From an uncultured Gemmatimonadales bacterium (GTDB lineage: Bacteria > Gemmatimonadota > Gemmatimonadetes > Gemmatimonadales > GWC2-71-9): a stretch of 64,000 bases of DNA. Each line of letters begins with the position of its first letter. The stretch's first letter is position 1. The stretch is from assembly GCA_963722825.1 (NCBI GenBank), contig CAVROI010000003.1, positions 1,879,764 through 1,943,763 on the forward strand, written 5' to 3'. A program made the translations under genes and the position numbers. The notes under the pieces were generated by a model, which had not been told where the DNA came from, did not search any database, and was given only the letters and a program-made list of their open reading frames with translations. This document shows, one piece after another, positions 40,797 to 49,091 of the stretch.

Positions 40797-40901
40797 CCGT
40801 ATCCGCCTCGGACACGGGTTAGCGACGCCACCGTGCCCAGAGTTAAGTTTGTCGCCCTGACGGTGTAACGATGGGGTGCAAGCCGTATCCCGGAGGGAGC
40901 T

Positions 40902-41972
40902 TTGGCAGTTCAGCGAACCCTGACCATCGATGGCGTGGAGATATCCGAGGCGAGCGACTGCTACGTCATCGCCGAGATCGGCCACAACCATCAGGGCCAG
41001 ATCGAGAAGTGCAAGGAGCTCTTCCGTGTGGCCAAGGAATGCGGGGTCGACGCGGTGAAGCTGCAGAAGAGGGACAACCGGTCGCTCTTCACGCGCGCGA
41101 TGTACGACAAGCCCTACGACAACGAGAACAGTTTCGGCGCCACGTACGGTGAGCACCGGGAGGCGCTCGAGTTCGGCCGCGACGAATACCTGGAGCTTCG
41201 GGCCTATGCCCGGGACCTCGGCGTCACCTTCTTCGCGACCGTGTTCGACGTCCCGAGCGCCGACTTCCTGGCCCGACTGGACATGCCGGCGTACAAGATC
41301 GCCTCGGGCGATCTCAAGAGCACGCCGCTGCTCCGCCACGTCGCCGCGTTCGGCAAGCCGATGATCGTGAGTACCGGCGGTGCGACCATGGATGATGTCG
41401 CCCGCGCCTACGATGCAATCGTTCCGATCAATCCGCAACTCTGCTTTCTCCAGTGCACCGCGGCGTACCCGGCGTCGCCCGAAGACCTGAATCTCAAGGT
41501 CATCTCGACCCTGCGAGCCAAGTATCCTGATCTGGTCATCGGGCTGTCAGACCACGAGAACGGCATCGCCATGGCGGTGGCCGCCTACGTGCTCGGGGCG
41601 CGAATCGTCGAAAAGCATTTCACGCTCAACCACACCTGGAAAGGCACCGACCATCCGTTCTCACTGGAGCCAATCGGGATGCGGAAGCTGGTGCGCGACC
41701 TGCGCCGCACCCGCGAGGCGCTCGGGAACGGGATCAAGTGCCCGCTTCCGACCGAGCGGGGTCCGCTAGTGAAGATGGGCAAGAAGCTGGTGGCGGCTCG
41801 CGCCCTCGGCGTCGGACACGTCCTGACCTCCGATGACGTGGCCGTGAAATCGCCGGGTGACGGACTGCCCCCATATCTCATCGATCAGGTACTGGGCCGA
41901 ACACTCACGAAGCCGCTCCAGCCCGACGATTCGATCACCTTCGAGATGCTGGCCCAGGGCGAGGGGGAATGA
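40902..41972 (+). CDS. Sialic-acid-synthase-family PEP-condensing enzyme with a C-terminal SAF domain, NANS (sugar-phosphate) type
   Basis: VIAEIGHNHQGQIEKCKELFRVAKECGVDAVKLQKR, FGATYGEHREALEF, CFLQCTAAYPASPEDLNLKVIS, GLSDHENGIAMAVAAYVLGARIVEKHFTL and TWKGTDHPFSLEP are present. The start is TTG, with GGAGGGA upstream. Confidence 0.85.
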   Translation: MAVQRTLTIDGVEISEASDCYVIAEIGHNHQGQIEKCKELFRVAKECGVDAVKLQKRDNRSLFTRAMYDKPYDNENSFGATYGEHREALEFGRDEYLELRAYARDLGVTFFATVFDVPSADFLARLDMPAYKIASGDLKSTPLLRHVAAFGKPMIVSTGGATMDDVARAYDAIVPINPQLCFLQCTAAYPASPEDLNLKVISTLRAKYPDLVIGLSDHENGIAMAVAAYVLGARIVEKHFTLNHTWKGTDHPFSLEPIGMRKLVRDLRRTREALGNGIKCPLPTERGPLVKMGKKLVAARALGVGHVLTSDDVAVKSPGDGLPPYLIDQVLGRTLTKPLQPDDSITFEMLAQGEGE

Positions 41973-42769
41973 CCCGTCCGCTGGACGGGCGCATCGGGGT
42001 CGTGACCGGCGCGCTCGGGCGGTTGGGACCGGTCTGGTGTGCGGCGCTGCTGGACGCAGGCGCAAAGGTTTACGCGCTTGATCTTCCGGGCGCGACATCC
42101 TCAGCGCCATTCACCGACCTTCAGCGACGCGCGGGAGAGCGACTCGTCTCTCTTCCGGCCGATGTGCTCGATCGGGCTTCCCTCGTGGCGGCGCTCGAGC
42201 GGTGCGAGCGGGATGGCGGAACCCCTGCCGTGCTCGTGAACAATGCCGGCATCGATCAGCCGCCGGGGCCCGCCACGACCTACAGGATCGAGGACGTTCC
42301 GCTCGACCTGTTCCGAGGGACGGTGGACGTGAACCTGGCCGGCGCCTTTCAGGCCGCGCAGGTTTTCGGCGCCGCCATGGTTCGCGCAGGACGCGGCTCG
42401 ATCGTAAACATCGGGTCCCTCTACGCCTCGGTCTCGCCCGACGCCCGGTTCTACGATCATCTCCCGACCGACCCTCCCTTTCTCAAGCCCCCCGCCTACG
42501 GCGCCTCGAAGGCCGCCCTCGTCAATCTGACCCGGTACCTCGCGACCCATTGGGGGCCGAGCGGTGTCAGGGTCAACGCCCTTTCTCCGGGCGGCGTCGA
42601 GGGAGGACAGGATCCGGAGTTCAAGCGTAAGTTCGTTGCCCGCGTGCCCTTGGGTCGGATGGCCGGCCCCCAGGACCTGGGAGGAGCGCTTATATTCCTC
42701 GCGTCCGATGCCTCCTCGTATGTCACCGGCGTCGAATTGCGGGTCGACGGCGGGTTCACTTCCTGGTGA
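41969..42769 (+). CDS. SDR-family oxidoreductase
   Basis: The glycine motif is VTGALGRLG. NNAG and the catalytic YGASKAA are present. The start overlaps the synthase stop (ATGA). Confidence 0.8.
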   Translation: MTRPLDGRIGVVTGALGRLGPVWCAALLDAGAKVYALDLPGATSSAPFTDLQRRAGERLVSLPADVLDRASLVAALERCERDGGTPAVLVNNAGIDQPPGPATTYRIEDVPLDLFRGTVDVNLAGAFQAAQVFGAAMVRAGRGSIVNIGSLYASVSPDARFYDHLPTDPPFLKPPAYGASKAALVNLTRYLATHWGPSGVRVNALSPGGVEGGQDPEFKRKFVARVPLGRMAGPQDLGGALIFLASDASSYVTGVELRVDGGFTSW

Positions 42770-42794
42770 GGGCCCGCGCGACTCCCAGCCGGCC

Positions 42795-44267
42795 ATGGTG
42801 GATCTGAATCTTCCCCCGATAATTCTCAATGTCGTGAACGGTCGTGAAGTGGGCGCGCTCGCCGGGGAGCAGTTCGAGAAGCGCGCTCCCGCGACCGGTC
42901 GCACGCTCGTCCAAGTAGCCCGCTCGCGCATTGCCGACGTCCAGGGCGCGGTGGCCGCCGCACGCTGCGCCCAGCCTGCATGGGCCGACGCCACCGTGAC
43001 GAGCCGTGGGGACGTGCTACGTGCCATCGCGCTCGCGCTCAACGAGCGCCGGGATGAGGTAGCGCAACTCGTGGCCCTCGAGACCGGCAAGTCCCTCAAA
43101 GATGCCCGGGGGGAGACGACCGCCGCCGTCGAGATGGGAATGTTCGTGGCCGGCGAAGGGCGGCGGTTCTACGGCCGGACGACTACCAGCGCCGTGCCCA
43201 ACAAGACGGCTCTCACCGTCCGCCAGCCCATTGGAGTGGCGGGACTCATCATCGCCGCCAATACGCCCATCGCCAACGTGGCCTGGAAGGTCTTTCCGGC
43301 GCTGCTCTGCGGGAATGCCGCGGTGCTCAAGGCGTCGGAGGACACGCCGCTGAGCGCCTGGGCGTTCGCGCGTCTCGCGGCCGACGCCGGCCTGCCGCCC
43401 GGTGTGCTCAATGTCATTCACGGATTCGGCGAAGAAGCCGGGGCCCCACTCGTGGAGTCCCCCGACGTGGATCTGATCAGCTTCACCGGCTCCGCGGCGG
43501 TGGGCCGGTACATTGGCAGGACGGCGGGCGAGCGGCTCGCCAAGGTCTGCCTCGAGCTTGGCGGCAAGAACCCGCTCATCGTCTGTGACGATGCCGACCT
43601 CGACCGGGCGGTGGAGTCCGCGGTGCTGTCGGCCTTCAGCAACGCCGGACAGCGCTGCGCGGCCGGCAGCCGTCTCATCGTCTTCGACGCGGTGTACGAG
43701 CGTTTCCGCGAGCGCCTGCTGGCGCGCGTGTCGCGCCTGCGGGTGGGCTGCTCGGACGACGATGACTTCGGCCCGGTAATCAACGAAGCGCAGCTCGACG
43801 GTATGTGCGCCGCCATCGAGACGGCGCGGAGAGCCGGCATTCGAGTCATCGCCGGTGGCCGCCGCGTGACCGGGGCCGGGTACGATGGCGGGTATTTCCT
43901 CGAGCCGACCCTCCTCGAAGACGCGGCGCCCGACGCCGACGTCTCTCGCACCGAGCTGTTCGGCCCTATTTCCGTCCTCTATCGAGTGTCCGACTTCGAC
44001 GCGGCCCTGCGGCTGGCGCACGATTCTCCCTACGGGCTCACCGCCTCGATCCACACCGCCAGCATCCACCGGGCGATGACGTTCCTGAACCGCATCCGGT
44101 CGGGAGTAGCGGTCGTCAACGGCGCAACCTACGGTAGCGAGCCTCACCTCCCGTTCGGCGGGCTGGGCGATTCCGGCACCGGTTGGCGCGAGGCTGGGAC
44201 CGAGGCGCTCGACGTCTATTCCGAGTGGAAGACGGTGTACCTCAACCACGATCCGCGTGCCGTCTGA
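42795..44267 (+). CDS. NAD(P)-dependent aldehyde dehydrogenase
   Basis: VCLELGGKNP carries the catalytic Glu. NAGQRCAAGSRL carries the catalytic Cys. FTGSAAVGR and EPHLPFGG are also present. I chose the ATG at 42795 inside the longer track ORF. Confidence 0.88.
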   Translation: MVDLNLPPIILNVVNGREVGALAGEQFEKRAPATGRTLVQVARSRIADVQGAVAAARCAQPAWADATVTSRGDVLRAIALALNERRDEVAQLVALETGKSLKDARGETTAAVEMGMFVAGEGRRFYGRTTTSAVPNKTALTVRQPIGVAGLIIAANTPIANVAWKVFPALLCGNAAVLKASEDTPLSAWAFARLAADAGLPPGVLNVIHGFGEEAGAPLVESPDVDLISFTGSAAVGRYIGRTAGERLAKVCLELGGKNPLIVCDDADLDRAVESAVLSAFSNAGQRCAAGSRLIVFDAVYERFRERLLARVSRLRVGCSDDDDFGPVINEAQLDGMCAAIETARRAGIRVIAGGRRVTGAGYDGGYFLEPTLLEDAAPDADVSRTELFGPISVLYRVSDFDAALRLAHDSPYGLTASIHTASIHRAMTFLNRIRSGVAVVNGATYGSEPHLPFGGLGDSGTGWREAGTEALDVYSEWKTVYLNHDPRAV

Positions 44268-45048
44268 CCGGCCGGAGGTTCCGGCCTGCGTTGCGCTGAT
44301 TCCGGCCCGGTCAGGATCGAAGCGGGTGCCGGGCAAGAATGTCCGCCCGCTGGCCGGGCACCCGCTCATGGCGTATACCATCGCCGCGGCCGTCGAGAGC
44401 AGGGTGTTCGCCGCCGTGATCGTCTCCACCGACTCGGCGGAGATCGCGGACATCGCGCGCCATTACGGAGCCGAGACGCCCTTCCTGCGTCCGGCGGCCA
44501 TGGCCGCCGATCTCTCGCCCGATATCGAGTGGGTCCGCTACACGCTCGACACGCTGCGGCAGATGGGTCGCGCCTGGGAGAGCTTCAGCATCCTGCGGCC
44601 CACGAGCCCCTTTCGCCAAGCCGACACCATTCGCCGCGCCTGGCGTGAGTTCACGGCCGCGGAGGCGATCGATTCGCTGCGCGCCGTCGAGCTCTGCCGG
44701 CAGCACCCGGGGAAGATGTGGGTCCTGGAGGCCGGCCGGATCGTCCCGCTGCTCCGGGATGGGCCGACGTCTCCACCCTGGCACAGCATGCCGTATCAGG
44801 GCCTTCCCACGGTGTACATTCAAAATGCAAGCCTGGAGATCGCCTGGTCCCGCACGGTTCGGGAGAAGGGCTCGATCGCGGGAACGGTCATTCATCCGTT
44901 TCTCACCGAAGGCTACGAGGGGTTCGACGTGAACGATTCGAGAGACTGGTCGTACGCGGAGCTTCTCCTCGAGGAGGGCAAGGCTACGCTGCCGCACGTC
45001 GGCGTCGAGGCCTGGCGCCCTTCGGCCGCGGGCGTGGACGCTCCATGA
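44257..45048 (+). CDS. CMP-sugar (acylneuraminate/ulosonate) cytidylyltransferase
   Basis: ALIPARSGSKRVPGKNVRPLAGHPLMAYTI is the CTP_transf_3 N-terminal signature. VSTDS and ILRPTSPFR are also present. Confidence 0.85.
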   Translation: MPSDRPEVPACVALIPARSGSKRVPGKNVRPLAGHPLMAYTIAAAVESRVFAAVIVSTDSAEIADIARHYGAETPFLRPAAMAADLSPDIEWVRYTLDTLRQMGRAWESFSILRPTSPFRQADTIRRAWREFTAAEAIDSLRAVELCRQHPGKMWVLEAGRIVPLLRDGPTSPPWHSMPYQGLPTVYIQNASLEIAWSRTVREKGSIAGTVIHPFLTEGYEGFDVNDSRDWSYAELLLEEGKATLPHVGVEAWRPSAAGVDAP

Positions 45049-46961
45049 GCACGCTTCGCTTTGTTCCGCTGAAAGAGCTCGAACGCGCGCGGACGCTCTC
45101 CGGCGACGCGGCCATCCGTGTCGCGCTCTTCTCCGCCCTCTGCCGCATCAACACGTTGTACATGATCGCGCGCGCCGGCTCCGGCCACATCGGGAGCAGC
45201 TTCAGCAGCCTCGACATCGTGGCCTGGCTGCACCTTCAAGAGATGCGACAGGGGCCGGCCACGCACGACCGGTTCTTTTCCTCGAAGGGCCATGATGTCC
45301 CCGGCCTGTACGCCGTGCTGATCGGGCTGGGGCGCTTGCCGTTCGAGAGCATCCACACGCTTCGCCGGCTCGGCGGGCTCCCCGGTCATCCCGACGTCGC
45401 CACTCCCGGAATGGTCACCAACACCGGGCCACTCGGCATGGGAGTATCCAAGGCGAAGGGAATGGTGCGAGCCAACCGTCTCGCGGGCCGGGACAGCCGG
45501 ATCTTCGTCATGACGGGCGACGGGGAGCTTCAGGAAGGCCAGTTCTGGGAGTCGCTCGCGTCGGCAGCCCACGCCCGGATGAGCGAGATCACGGTGATCG
45601 TGGACCACAACAAGGTCCAGTCGGACACGCTTGTTTCGTCGGTGAGTGATCTCGGGAATCTGGCCGCCAAATTCGAGGCGTTCGGCTGGCATTGCGTCCG
45701 TTGCGACGGGCATGACTTGGCCGCGCTGGGTGCTACCTTCGACCGGCTGCGGCGGGTGGCCGACCGACCGAAGATCATCCTCGCGGATACGATCAAGGGG
45801 CGTGGCGTCTCGTTCATGCAGCACACGGCACTGGAGCCCGGCGAGAAATTCTACCGGTTTCACAGTGGCGCTCCCGACGACCCCACGTACGAGCGGGCCG
45901 CCGCCGAGCTGATCGCCTCGGCCAACCAGATGCTCGCGCGTGCTGGCGCTGCGCCGCTGAATCTCGAGGAGAGCCCGCGACCGCCACGACCGGGCATTCA
46001 AGGCGCTCAGCGACTGATCCCGGCCTACTCCCGGGCCCTCGTCGCGCACGCGGAGCACAACCCGCGGCTCGTGGCTCTCGATGCCGACCTGCTGCTGGAC
46101 ACCGGACTGATCCCGTTCTCCGAGCGCTTTCCCGACCGATTCATCGAGTGCGGCATCGCCGAGCAGGACATGGTCTCCCAGGCGGGTGGACTCGCCCTCA
46201 GCGGGTATCTACCGGTCGTGCACTCGTTCGCCTGCTTCCTGTCCACTCGCGCGAACGAGCAGATCTACAACAACGCGACCGAGCGCAGGAAGATCGTGTA
46301 CGTGGGCTCGCTGGCCGGGCTACTTCCCGGCGGGCCGGGTCACTCGCACCAATCGGTTCGCGACGTGGCGGCGCTGGGGGGGACCCCGGGCCTCGAGATG
46401 ATCGAGCCATCGTGCGAGGACGAAGTCACCCAGGCCGTGGCGTACGCTCTGGATCCCACCGGGCCGAGCGCGTATCTCCGACTGGTGTCCATCCCGTGCC
46501 AGGTGCCGTTCAGGTTGCCCGCGGGTTATCGACTCGAGCGGGGGAGGGGTGTCGCTCTTACGCCGGGAGACGACGCGGTGATGTTCGCCTACGGTCCCGT
46601 GATGTTGTCGGAGGCATGGAAGGCGGCGGCGCTGCTGCGGGAGCGCAAGGATATCGGACTCCGGATCGTGAACCTGCCCTGGCTCAACCTCGTAGATGAC
46701 GACTGGCTCGAGGAAGCGCTGTCGGGTATCAATCTCGTCTTTGCCCTCGACGATCATTATGTCGAGGGAGGGCAGGGGCAGATGCTGGCGAGCCGGATTG
46801 CCGAGCTCGGTCTGACCGACTCGATGACCGTGAGGCGATTCGGTGTTCGCGATATTCCCGCCTGCGGCCAGAATGACGAAGTACTTCGGGCGCATCGTCT
46901 CGACGCCGAAAGTCTGGCGGAAGACGTGGCCGCGGTTCTCACCGCCGGTCCGGCCGCCTGA
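45045..46961 (+). CDS. Single-chain transketolase-family ThDP enzyme (N- and C-terminal halves fused, about 638 aa)
   Basis: GSGHIGSSFSSLDIV is present. The ThDP/Mg motif is TGDGELQEGQFWES...IVDHNKVQSD. The pyrimidine-binding half contains FIECGIAEQDMVSQAGGLA and PGHSHQS. ATGA overlaps the cytidylyltransferase stop. Confidence 0.85.
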   Translation: MSTLRFVPLKELERARTLSGDAAIRVALFSALCRINTLYMIARAGSGHIGSSFSSLDIVAWLHLQEMRQGPATHDRFFSSKGHDVPGLYAVLIGLGRLPFESIHTLRRLGGLPGHPDVATPGMVTNTGPLGMGVSKAKGMVRANRLAGRDSRIFVMTGDGELQEGQFWESLASAAHARMSEITVIVDHNKVQSDTLVSSVSDLGNLAAKFEAFGWHCVRCDGHDLAALGATFDRLRRVADRPKIILADTIKGRGVSFMQHTALEPGEKFYRFHSGAPDDPTYERAAAELIASANQMLARAGAAPLNLEESPRPPRPGIQGAQRLIPAYSRALVAHAEHNPRLVALDADLLLDTGLIPFSERFPDRFIECGIAEQDMVSQAGGLALSGYLPVVHSFACFLSTRANEQIYNNATERRKIVYVGSLAGLLPGGPGHSHQSVRDVAALGGTPGLEMIEPSCEDEVTQAVAYALDPTGPSAYLRLVSIPCQVPFRLPAGYRLERGRGVALTPGDDAVMFAYGPVMLSEAWKAAALLRERKDIGLRIVNLPWLNLVDDDWLEEALSGINLVFALDDHYVEGGQGQMLASRIAELGLTDSMTVRRFGVRDIPACGQNDEVLRAHRLDAESLAEDVAAVLTAGPAA

Positions 46962-47659
46962 TGCTGGTCTTCTGGGACATCGACGGCACCTTGCTGACCA
47001 CCGGGCGCGCGGGAATCTTCGCGTGGGAGGAGGCTTTGAGTGAGGTCGCCGGAATCGATGCCGATCTCGAGACGTTCGATACCGCCGGCATTCCGGACTT
47101 CGGCATCGCGCGGCGACTGCTCGGTGAATATGCCGGCGAGGCCGATCCCACCGCCGATGCGGTCCGGCGCCTCGTCACGGCCTACGAGGACCGCCTTCCT
47201 GCCGCTCTCTCGCGCCGGCAGGGACGGGTCCTTCCCAATGTGCGTGAGATCCTGGTGGCGCTGACGACTGAGCCTGGAGCGCACTCGATGCTCCTCACGG
47301 GAAACACCCGCCGAGGGGCGGATGCAAAACTCCGCCACTACCGACTGGCGGAGTTCTTCCACGAAGGTGCTTTCTCGGAGGGCGACCTCGACCGGGAAGC
47401 CATCGCCGGCGTCGCTCTCGAGCGCGCCACATCGGCAGGCTATGGCGCTGACATCTCTCGCATCTTCGTGGTCGGTGATACGCCGCACGACGTACGGTGC
47501 GGCCGGTCGATCGGAGTGAGAACCGTCGCCGTGGCGACCGGCGGATACGACGAGGCCGCCCTGGCCGCCTCCGGTGCGTGGAAGGTGCTGCCGGAGCTGC
47601 CGCCGGCCGGAGAGTTCCTCGCGCTGCTCTCGGGCCGTGAGGTCTCGGCCGATGCCTGA
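46961..47659 (+). CDS. HAD-superfamily phosphatase (capped, subfamily IA-like)
   Basis: Motif I is FWDIDGTLL. LLTGNTR and the motif IV region VVGDTPHDVRCG are present. The start overlaps the transketolase stop by 1 nt (TGATG). Confidence 0.8.
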   Translation: MLVFWDIDGTLLTTGRAGIFAWEEALSEVAGIDADLETFDTAGIPDFGIARRLLGEYAGEADPTADAVRRLVTAYEDRLPAALSRRQGRVLPNVREILVALTTEPGAHSMLLTGNTRRGADAKLRHYRLAEFFHEGAFSEGDLDREAIAGVALERATSAGYGADISRIFVVGDTPHDVRCGRSIGVRTVAVATGGYDEAALAASGAWKVLPELPPAGEFLALLSGREVSADA

Positions 47660-49091
47660 CGCCACCGTGCTCGCGTCGGCACCGTTCCCGCTCGCGCTCC
47701 GCAACTTCGTGCCGACCGGCCTGGCGTCCGAGCTCGAGGCACGCTTCGGGGTGCGGGTTCGGTTCGTATCGCCCTATGCCCAGCCCGAGTTTACCGATGG
47801 AGCCGGCCACTCGTTCCTCAACTTCGCGGTCGCGGCTTCCGCCGGGGCCAACGGCGTGCCCGCACTCGCTGGAGTCACCGCGCTCGATCGAGCATTGAAG
47901 AGCATCCATCTCACCGGCTTCGCGATGGAATATCCCGACGGCAGCCTCCAGAATCTCGAGCTCAGCCGCCGTCACTCGGCCCAGAACCAGGTCGCGCGCA
48001 TCCTCGCCATGCTGGCGCCGCGCGCCTCCGGACGCAGGCAATGGCTCAGGCGGGTTGCGGCCCTGTATCGTCCCGCCCGCCGACAGATTCAGGATGCCTT
48101 CGATCGGACGAATCCGGCGATGGTGCTCGTCGCCTCTCCCGGGCACTACTGGCTCGACCACTTTGTCCTTGACGAGGCCGCGCGCCGGCGGATTCCCAGC
48201 GTGTGCGTCGTCCTCAGCTGGGACAATCTCTACTCGCGCGGCCCGATGTGCCGCCGGCCGGACCATCTCCTTGTCTGGAGCGAGGAGATGCGGCGACAGG
48301 CGATGACGATCCACCAGTATCCGGAGAACCGGATCGGAGTGGTCGGCCCGCTCCAGTTCCGGTTCTACGCCGAGCCACCGACAGCGGAGGAGCTCGGCGC
48401 GATGCGCCGGCGGATCGGTCTCGGCCCGGCGGAGCCGTTTATCGCCTATGTGTGCGGCGTACGCACCGCGCGGTACGACGTCGAAGACGTGACCGCCATG
48501 CTCGATGCGCTCGCCCACGGCCCATACCGTGATTTCAAGGTGGTCGTTCGCCCTCATCCCCAGGGATCCCGCGAGGCATACGAGGCACTCAGAACCCGCG
48601 GAGTGCTGCTCGACCCGTCTCCGGATCTGACGCATGAGGAAGCCCAGCCCGAGGCGCTCGACACCGAGGCCATCCGCCACATGGCGAGTCTCCTCGACGG
48701 CGCCCACTTCGTGGTGAGTAGCTGGGGGACCACCGCGCTGCTCGAGGCCTGCATCTTCGACACGCCCAGCGTACAGCTTCGCTGGATGGACGCTCTGCCA
48801 CACAGCGTGCCGGAGGAAGTCCAGCTCGTCCGGGATTTCCAGCGATACATCCACATGCGGGCGTTCGACGCCACCGGCGCCCGACCCTACTGCGATCGGC
48901 CCGAGACGCTCAATGCGATTCTGGCCGATCTCGAATCTCGAGCCGACGAATTCTCCCGGAGACGGGCGGAGGCCGTCGGGCTCCTGGCTCACTTGCCGCT
49001 GGGCGACGTGGTCCAGCGAGTCTGCGAGAGACTCCGCCCCGTGCTCCCCCAGGCGACCGTACGGCCGCCGCTCGTGCAGGTGGCCCGATGA
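47652..49091 (+). CDS. Uncharacterised GT-B-like protein with an HP motif, a candidate CMP-ulosonate glycosyltransferase
   Basis: A soluble-looking 479-aa protein. VCVVLSWDNLYSRG, LLVWSEEMRRQ, and KVVVRPHPQGS are present (H302-P303, nt 48555-48560). Its organisation resembles sialyl/beta-Kdo/TagF-like transferases. The family assignment is inference. Confidence 0.45.
   Translation: MPDATVLASAPFPLALRNFVPTGLASELEARFGVRVRFVSPYAQPEFTDGAGHSFLNFAVAASAGANGVPALAGVTALDRALKSIHLTGFAMEYPDGSLQNLELSRRHSAQNQVARILAMLAPRASGRRQWLRRVAALYRPARRQIQDAFDRTNPAMVLVASPGHYWLDHFVLDEAARRRIPSVCVVLSWDNLYSRGPMCRRPDHLLVWSEEMRRQAMTIHQYPENRIGVVGPLQFRFYAEPPTAEELGAMRRRIGLGPAEPFIAYVCGVRTARYDVEDVTAMLDALAHGPYRDFKVVVRPHPQGSREAYEALRTRGVLLDPSPDLTHEEAQPEALDTEAIRHMASLLDGAHFVVSSWGTTALLEACIFDTPSVQLRWMDALPHSVPEEVQLVRDFQRYIHMRAFDATGARPYCDRPETLNAILADLESRADEFSRRRAEAVGLLAHLPLGDVVQRVCERLRPVLPQATVRPPLVQVAR

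Follow-up and report, generated by a model that had tools for sequence, protein, structure and literature searches.

The gene at positions 40902–41972 of the window (the whole 64,000-nucleotide stretch analysed here, from contig CAVROI010000003.1 of an uncultured Gemmatimonadales bacterium) codes for a protein of the NeuB superfamily, hereafter referred to as the synthase. Its sequence supports placing it in the branch of enzymes that resemble animal N-acetylneuraminate-9-phosphate synthase (NANS), and not amongst the classical NeuB, PseI or LegI enzymes. This type had been proposed in a reading made from the letters alone (the sequence-only reading), and at the level of the enzyme type the proposal is supported by a residue signature, by scores below the cut-offs of the classical models, by a deep split in the phylogenetic tree and by an approximately unbiased (AU) test. 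Taken as a whole, the gene product is probably a NANS-like, metal-dependent enzyme of the NeuB fold, which condenses phosphoenolpyruvate (PEP) with an aldose phosphate and is encoded in a sugar-acid operon.

The 356 codons of the gene form an uninterrupted frame, and direct translation gives a protein of 356 amino acids. The start codon is a TTG at 40902, preceded by GGAGG, and it occupies the same position in the alignment of the orthologues. Pfam recognises a NeuB domain (260.8 bits, 1.4e-77) followed by a SAF domain (37.2 bits), which is the architecture of the NeuB superfamily, a PF03102 TIM barrel followed by a C-terminal SAF/AFP-like domain (residue ranges in Table 1). The closest proteins in large collections are 80–87% identical and originate from Gemmatimonadales metagenome bins. 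Searching the ESM Atlas with the synthase returned only generic “NeuB family” clusters, and a PADLOC run gave no match.

The three motifs on which the sequence-only reading was based are present letter for letter in the protein (residues 78–91, 181–202 and 245–257). The human motifs that it set beside them were essentially right, as the marsupial NANS P0324, taken as a stand-in for the human enzyme, has near-identical versions of all three, with matches at 9 of 14, 15 of 22 and 10 of 13 positions. Residues T81, Y82 and G83 of the first motif are invariant in the 80 orthologues (63–82% identity) of our synteny set, which was obtained from a scan of species-representative genomes. The G-P-D-H pattern attributed to the classical enzymes is borne out in the alignments, while the opposition of Q-C-T to H-C-x-S as a marker of type has to be abandoned: the H-C form is found in arthropod NANS and in many rows of the window's own clade, and LQCT is not diagnostic.

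The signature which does discriminate was read on an alignment of the window protein, the cassette orthologues, animal NANS and validated NeuB and PseI sequences, and the same columns were then read on 143 rows. The reference set consisted of the marsupial NANS and of NeuB and PseI sequences validated by PGAP or TIGR models, with no named LegI among them; the arthropod NANS came from a library search (best 150 representatives), and a search seeded with a neighbour of these yielded more than 100 named vertebrate and invertebrate NANS. The synthase and nine named animal NANS have in common LQK (or FQK), GxTYGxH, SGD, KG[TS]DH and K[ML]GK, all of which are absent from the 16 classical rows. They also share the segment I-A-E-I-G-x-N-H-Q-G, a His followed by Glu or Asp, and two small indels, and neither retains the Arg of K-R-P-G. 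The 16 classical rows, by contrast, all begin with a segment like I-A-E-A-G-V-N-H-N-G, have FQT (or FQS), K-R-P-G in some form, a segment resembling P-G-P-D-H and a His followed by Thr or Ser, and lack GxTYGxH. Classical rows carry SGE in place of SGD, with the exception of SFE in two PseI-type rows and SSE in one NeuB-like row. The animal enzymes compared (marsupial P0324, fish, coelacanth, echinoderm, hemichordate, amphioxus, spider and insect) have the same NeuB and AFP/SAF architecture as the synthase at nearly equal length, and like it they have Glu or Asp after the His of the xSxH-E/D motif. They differ at the end of the SAF domain, which reads K-S-P-G-D-G in the synthase and K-V-x-E-P-x-G, one residue longer, in animal NANS.

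The profile models separate the synthase from both classical types. It scores 285.5 bits on the NeuB equivalog TIGR03569 (cut-off 399.65) and 227 bits on the PseI equivalog TIGR03586 (cut-off 340.25). With 276–311 bits for three animal NANS, the NeuB model scores these enzymes in the range of the synthase. A control neuB from Rhodobacteraceae, which adjoins neuC, reaches 440.5 bits on this model, three Gemmatimonadota genes exceed its cut-off with 434–461 bits, and a control pseI from Sphingobium, which adjoins pseF/G/H, reaches 482 bits on the PseI model. While the classical genes adjoin neuC or pseF/G/H, the window synthase does not. In pairwise comparison, the synthase is 44% identical to P0324 over 317 residues with a single one-residue gap (290 bits), a similarity that, judging from the alignment, is due to homology and not to chance. 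It is 38% identical to a NeuB from the same phylum that passes TIGR03569, with nine gap positions (198 bits). Against solved structures, the scores range from 132 bits for Neisseria meningitidis NeuB to 162 bits for Bacillus subtilis SpsE, with 132–151 bits for the solved NeuB and PseI enzymes.

Phylogeny had been named beforehand as one of the checks that could refute the sequence-only reading, and it places the window protein outside classical NeuB/PseI, which leaves that reading standing. The most careful tree was built under LG+C20 with posterior mean site frequencies (PMSF) from 79 rows, and quick trees were built under LG+G4 (143 rows) and PMSF; BT1714 of Bacteroides thetaiotaomicron and the 2-keto-3-deoxynononic acid (Kdn)-9-phosphate synthase of Prymnesium parvum were not among the rows. 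The careful tree is divided by a deep split between 14 classical rows and the 65 others, which include the nine animal NANS and the window protein, with a support of 100/100. The same split is found in both quick trees with 14–16 classical rows and a value of 100 in the Shimodaira–Hasegawa-like approximate likelihood ratio test. One clade (100/99) unites the animal NANS; another, made up of 37 bacterial rows only (100/100), contains the window protein, and in it the cassette-bearing orthologues group tightly together (97/97). The branching order among the non-classical lineages is not resolved in the trees. Forcing the cassette group into NeuB proper, with PseI-like rows excluded, costs 151 log-likelihood units and is rejected by the AU test (p = 5.6e-6). 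A grouping of animal-like rows with NeuB/PseI, seen with FastTree, was not kept under the site-heterogeneous model. The fair statement, as far as the sequences indicate, would be that the protein is outside classical NeuB/PseI, carries derived-looking residues and indels common to NANS, and represents a lineage of its own.

The catalytic residues can be followed by alignment with the solved structure of N. meningitidis NeuB (SiaC; PDB 1xuu/2wqp), which like PseI has the same fold and PEP/metal chemistry as expected for the synthase. Residues H218 and H239 align with H215 and H236 of the N. meningitidis enzyme, and K53, Q55 and D250 with K53, Q55 and D247; all five are invariant in the 80 orthologues. 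We take the two histidines of the N. meningitidis enzyme to be its metal ligands, and the Lys, Gln and Asp to form its PEP and sugar site; His218 and His239 are accordingly predicted to be the metal ligands of the synthase. The differences lie close by: K56 stands in place of Thr56, beside Gln55, K247 and T249 occupy the positions of the two prolines that precede Asp247, and S317 is found in place of Arg314. K56 is kept in all 80 orthologues and position 247 is K or R in all 80, while K291 and K294 are kept in 79–80 of 80, K294 being invariant. Since Lys56 and Lys247 lie on the flanks of Gln55 and Asp250, the presumed sugar contacts, we infer that these lysines may hold the phosphate of the sugar.

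That the substrate would be a phosphosugar is also suggested by the phosphatases found near the gene. The HAD phosphatase gene which the sequence-only reading had pointed out in the same cassette is real (Pfam HAD and HAD_2), and the argument built on it has become stronger than when it was first put, as enzymes of either KdsC or HAD_2 type are found in the orthologous cassettes. Of the 80 orthologous loci, 33 encode a KdsC-family phosphatase of 170–190 residues no more than 1 kb away from the synthase, and 8 others have a phosphatase of the window type. The KdsC family, as considered here, includes the phosphatases of 3-deoxy-D-manno-octulosonate (KDO)-8-phosphate and the solved Kdn-9-phosphate phosphatase of B. 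thetaiotaomicron (3e81 and others). The recruitment of two different HAD subtypes to the same role in the cassette points to a phosphorylated intermediate, hence to a phosphosugar substrate, and is the best available argument for the synthase releasing a phosphate ester. Phosphosugars and a phosphatase are used in the routes of humans, B. thetaiotaomicron and P. parvum, but not in those of many bacteria (PMC6200933). The Kdn-9-phosphate pathways of B. thetaiotaomicron (BT1714 with the KdsC-type phosphatase BT1713) and P. parvum follow the same logic of synthase, phosphatase and activation with cytidine monophosphate (CMP), with no amino-sugar steps (PMC6200933). A KdsC-family enzyme directly beside the synthase, as in many of the orthologous cassettes, is a B. 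thetaiotaomicron-like feature, while the window has a HAD_2-type enzyme instead. A HAD phosphatase is needed in the animal NANS pathway too.

The synthase gene opens a co-directional series (Table 1) coding for a short-chain dehydrogenase (SDR), an aldehyde dehydrogenase (ALDH), a cytidylyltransferase, a transketolase-like enzyme and the HAD phosphatase; after it come a 479-residue protein of no known family and a polymerase-like protein. It is embedded in a Wzx/Wzy polysaccharide cluster with rmlA/C/D/B, a GT9 enzyme, several methyltransferases and a flippase. Among the cluster open reading frames (ORFs) scanned, between 29.7 and 54.5 kb, no NeuC (Epimerase_2), aminotransferase, acetyltransferase or N-acetylmannosamine (ManNAc) kinase was found, nor any PseB/C/H/G- or LegB/C-type gene. 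The nearest named relatives of the SDR are KduD, gluconate 5-dehydrogenase and mannonate oxidoreductase, all below their cut-offs, and these enzymes oxidise the penultimate carbon of sugar acids. The alignment of the transketolase with the human enzyme covers its full length (212 bits), that with the E. coli, yeast and plant enzymes its N-terminal domain only (about 80–125 bits), and on no NCBIfam transketolase or DXS model does it reach the cut-off. The known Kdn pathways of B. thetaiotaomicron and P. parvum lack SDR, ALDH and transketolase, whereas the window cassette has all three. This operon is likewise not found in animals, and the window, unlike the animal pathway, has no nearby-encoded route to ManNAc-6-phosphate.

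Table 1 Features of the synthase gene and its cassette in the window.
Feature	Position	Strand	Remarks
Shine-Dalgarno-like GGAGGGAG	40892..40899	+	Read from sequence; ends 2 nt before the TTG start
NANS-like PEP-condensing ulosonate-phosphate synthase (putative)	40902..41972	+	NeuB barrel aa 42–279, SAF/AFP-like domain aa 296–350
Motif 1 (aa 78–91)	41133..41174	+	GxTYGxH core common to animal NANS, not in classical NeuB/PseI
Motif 2 (aa 181–202), xCxxxYP region	41442..41507	+	Family-wide conservation; does not discriminate types
Motif 3 (aa 245–257), K247-G-T-D250-H	41634..41672	+	P-G-P-D-H in classical enzymes; D250 aligns with N. meningitidis NeuB Asp247
Short-chain dehydrogenase (SDR)	41969..42769	+	Start overlaps synthase stop; conserved beside synthase in orthologous loci
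Aldehyde dehydrogenase (ALDH)	42795..44267	+	ATG at 42795 inside ORF 42564–44267
CMP-sugar-acid cytidylyltransferase	44257..45048	+	CTP_transf_3; PseF-like, below cut-off
Three-domain transketolase-family thiamine diphosphate (ThDP) enzyme	45045..46961	+	Conserved in orthologous loci
HAD_2-type phosphatase, presumed ulosonate-phosphate phosphatase	46961..47659	+	Pfam HAD, HAD_2; in most other lineages a KdsC-type enzyme beside the synthase takes its place

A route that would employ every enzyme of the cassette can be proposed. The synthase would most likely form a 3-deoxy-2-ulosonate phosphate from PEP and an aldose phosphate, with release of inorganic phosphate; if a single substrate had to be named, it would be mannose-6-phosphate (Man-6-P), and the product would then be Kdn-9-phosphate. 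The HAD enzyme would then remove the phosphate, the SDR would oxidise the penultimate carbon of the free acid to leave a terminal ketol, the transketolase-like enzyme would take off the two-carbon ketol unit, and the ALDH would oxidise the new aldehyde to a second carboxylate. From stereochemical reasoning, 8-keto-Kdn would have the D-threo arrangement of transketolase donors. The cytidylyltransferase would finally activate the product for a rhamnose-containing, methylated polysaccharide made by the Wzx/Wzy system. The distinct bacterial clade could then provide the entry enzyme of an undescribed pathway, either to a CMP-activated dicarboxylic (ulosaric) acid or starting from an aldose phosphate other than Man-6-P and ManNAc-6-phosphate. 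In both cases the product would be an unrecorded nucleotide sugar, a proposal to which we give slightly less than an even chance. In the literature on this gene combination and on bacterial ulosaric-acid biosynthesis, nothing relevant was found.

The cassette is conserved well beyond the Gemmatimonadales. The 80 orthologous loci span at least seven phyla (Gemmatimonadota, Chloroflexota, Desulfobacterota, Cyanobacteria, Acidobacteriota, Actinomycetota and Alphaproteobacteria, amongst others), with Moorena (Cyanobacteria) and the alphaproteobacteria Magnetospirillum fulvum (DSM 13234) and Tistlia consotensis (USBA 355), both cultivable (loci L095, L096), as named carriers. Where at least 7 kb of downstream sequence is available (52 loci), the same order is observed, with the SDR present in 44, the ALDH in 47, the cytidylyltransferase in 46 and the transketolase in 42. 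Closer to home, 40 further genomes of the genus were sampled, of which 16 (G210, G190, G154 and G213 for example) have a match of at least 64% identity to the synthase, in some cases a fragment, and the order-level sample of 100 genomes contained no orthologue, all matches outside the window's own genome being at most 40% identical. This patchy presence in the genus and order samples indicates that the gene is accessory. Together with orthologues of 63–73% identity in at least seven other phyla, it suggests that the cassette has spread horizontally. A more distant synthase, 55% identical to that of the window, is encoded on the plasmid NZ_CP108509.1 of Streptomyces sp. NBC_01237 (8470–19324), where it is followed by an SDR, a transketolase, an RraA-like aldolase, an RmlD-like reductase, a HAD_2 enzyme and a class-III aminotransferase. 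This locus adjoins genes of the hydroxyphenylglycine type (glyoxalase/dioxygenase, FMN-dehydrogenase and aminotransferase), and it looks as though the core of synthase, SDR and transketolase also occurs in a natural-product cluster. The presence in the place of the ALDH of a class-III aminotransferase, an enzyme for which aldehydes are substrates too, fits an aldehyde intermediate.

Several observations weigh against a phosphosugar synthase acting on Man-6-P. The window clade is not sister to animal NANS, and no characterised phosphosugar enzyme of the tree falls within it. A tree constrained to show the cassette group as sister of all classical rows together loses 24 log-likelihood units and is not rejected (AU p = 0.25, on a quick tree and with groups named after a tree was seen). 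Profile scores are near equal, 369.7 bits against a profile of 22 animal NANS and 362.5 bits against one of 14 mixed classical rows, which suggests that overall the synthase is about equally far from animal NANS and from NeuB. Amongst the 52 long orthologous loci, 20 have no match to the two phosphatase queries (KdsC type and window HAD type). The transketolase could supply an unusual aldose phosphate, in which case the substrate would not be Man-6-P. Finally, Gln55, Asp247 and Arg314 of N. meningitidis NeuB are, we assume, contacts of its sugar; if they are, the lysines added around these positions would be where a 6-phosphate could be held. As to the loci lacking a phosphatase, the phosphatases of such pathways are often unlinked (PMC6200933), which may explain them.

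The use made of the transketolase is what distinguishes the alternative that survives best, one which we nevertheless consider unlikely. Here, the synthase would also be a NANS-like phosphosugar enzyme, but the transketolase would make an unusual C4, C5 or C7 aldose phosphate to which the synthase adds three carbons, with the SDR and ALDH oxidising the dephosphorylated terminal carbon to a carboxylate. The transketolase does accompany the synthase both in the 42 long loci mentioned above and in the Streptomyces natural-product cluster, and the products of ordinary transketolases are all sugar phosphates, which would fit a phosphosugar-type synthase beside it. An analogy exists in the 3-amino-5-hydroxybenzoate (AHBA) pathway, where the PEP-condensing enzyme is fed by a dedicated transketolase, and a HAD phosphatase, an oxidoreductase and an aminotransferase are present as well. 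A dedicated copy is however not obviously needed, as the housekeeping transketolase already gives erythrose-4-phosphate and ribose-5-phosphate. SDRs rarely oxidise a primary alcohol to an aldehyde, and the named relatives of this one act on secondary alcohols. Moreover, the P. parvum enzyme, which belongs to the NANS-like branch, accepted only Man-6-P and not arabinose-5-phosphate (PMC6200933).

The second alternative is that of a classical synthase of the NeuB, LegI or PseI kind acting on a free sugar, in which the NANS-like motifs would be retained ancestral residues that say nothing about the substrate, and the HAD enzymes of the cassettes would serve another step. It draws on the tolerated sister position to the whole classical group, the near-equal profile scores and the 20 long loci with no detected phosphatase. 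We regard it as very improbable, since the synthase scores below both equivalog cut-offs, is separated from the classical enzymes by the fully supported split and is rejected from a position inside NeuB. It also lacks the PGPDH and K-R-P-G segments, some form of which is present in each of the 16 classical rows. The cluster ORFs scanned contain none of the NeuC, PseB/C/H/G or LegB/C-type genes, and two unrelated HAD subtypes have been recruited beside the same synthase. Least probable of all is a true N-acetylneuraminate-9-phosphate synthase acting on ManNAc-6-phosphate as in animals, with the cluster making a derivative of N-acetylneuraminic acid (Neu5Ac): the 44% identity to mammalian NANS and the common signature speak for it, but the cluster ORFs scanned showed no UDP-N-acetylglucosamine 2-epimerase and no ManNAc kinase, nor any aminotransferase or acetyltransferase, the protein lies outside the animal NANS clade, and Neu5Ac synthesis has no step for an SDR, an ALDH or a transketolase.

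The preferred reading, a NANS-like synthase which would act on an aldose phosphate, has consequences for annotation. Database labels for the synthase and thousands of its relatives read “N-acetylneuraminate synthase family protein” or “sialic acid synthase”, and can mislead the reader into crediting bacteria of soils and sediments with Neu5Ac synthesis via the NeuB/NeuC route. Within the set compared here, a candidate annotation rule would be that LQK, GxTYGxH and KG[TS]DH indicate a NANS-like enzyme, and FQT and PGPDH a classical one. The phosphatase context supports the same split as this residue signature, which also singles out Lys56 and Lys247 as targets for mutagenesis. The interest of the synthase lies in the breadth of its clade and in the uncharacterised cassette that it opens, the product of which would extend the list of bacterial surface sugar acids.

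Some further observations concern the neighbouring genes and other members of the family. The cassette is followed in different lineages by unrelated-looking proteins, the 479-residue one in the window (47652–49091) and one of 564 residues in another locus (L095, 16631–18325). These have only a short hydrophobic-R-x-H-P segment in common and are candidate CMP-sugar transferases. The genome of the window contains two more weak matches to the NeuB domain, of 44 bits (L002, G000:C1:535271-535831) and 24 bits (L003, G000:C2:50486-51007). Metagenome proteins of about 460 residues with an N-terminal extension of roughly 100 residues (P0282–P0296) fall inside the animal NANS clade, beside P0191. Proteins of 570–585 residues (P0402, P0198, P0426, P0442 and others) are fusions of a NANS-like synthase to a CTP_transf_3 cytidylyltransferase, and are found in the bacterial lineage nearest to the animal clade. 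A match in E. coli KE47 (H39; L005, NZ_CP141089.1, 5260–6870), considered as a possible K1 NeuB, was ruled out as such, being a rare fused member of the family. It is annotated as “N-acetylneuraminate synthase family protein” and consists of an N-terminal half of no known family joined to a NeuB domain without SAF, with LQKRD and an FGTTF-like segment but no KGxDH, and it is present in 11 of 5426 complete E. coli genomes.

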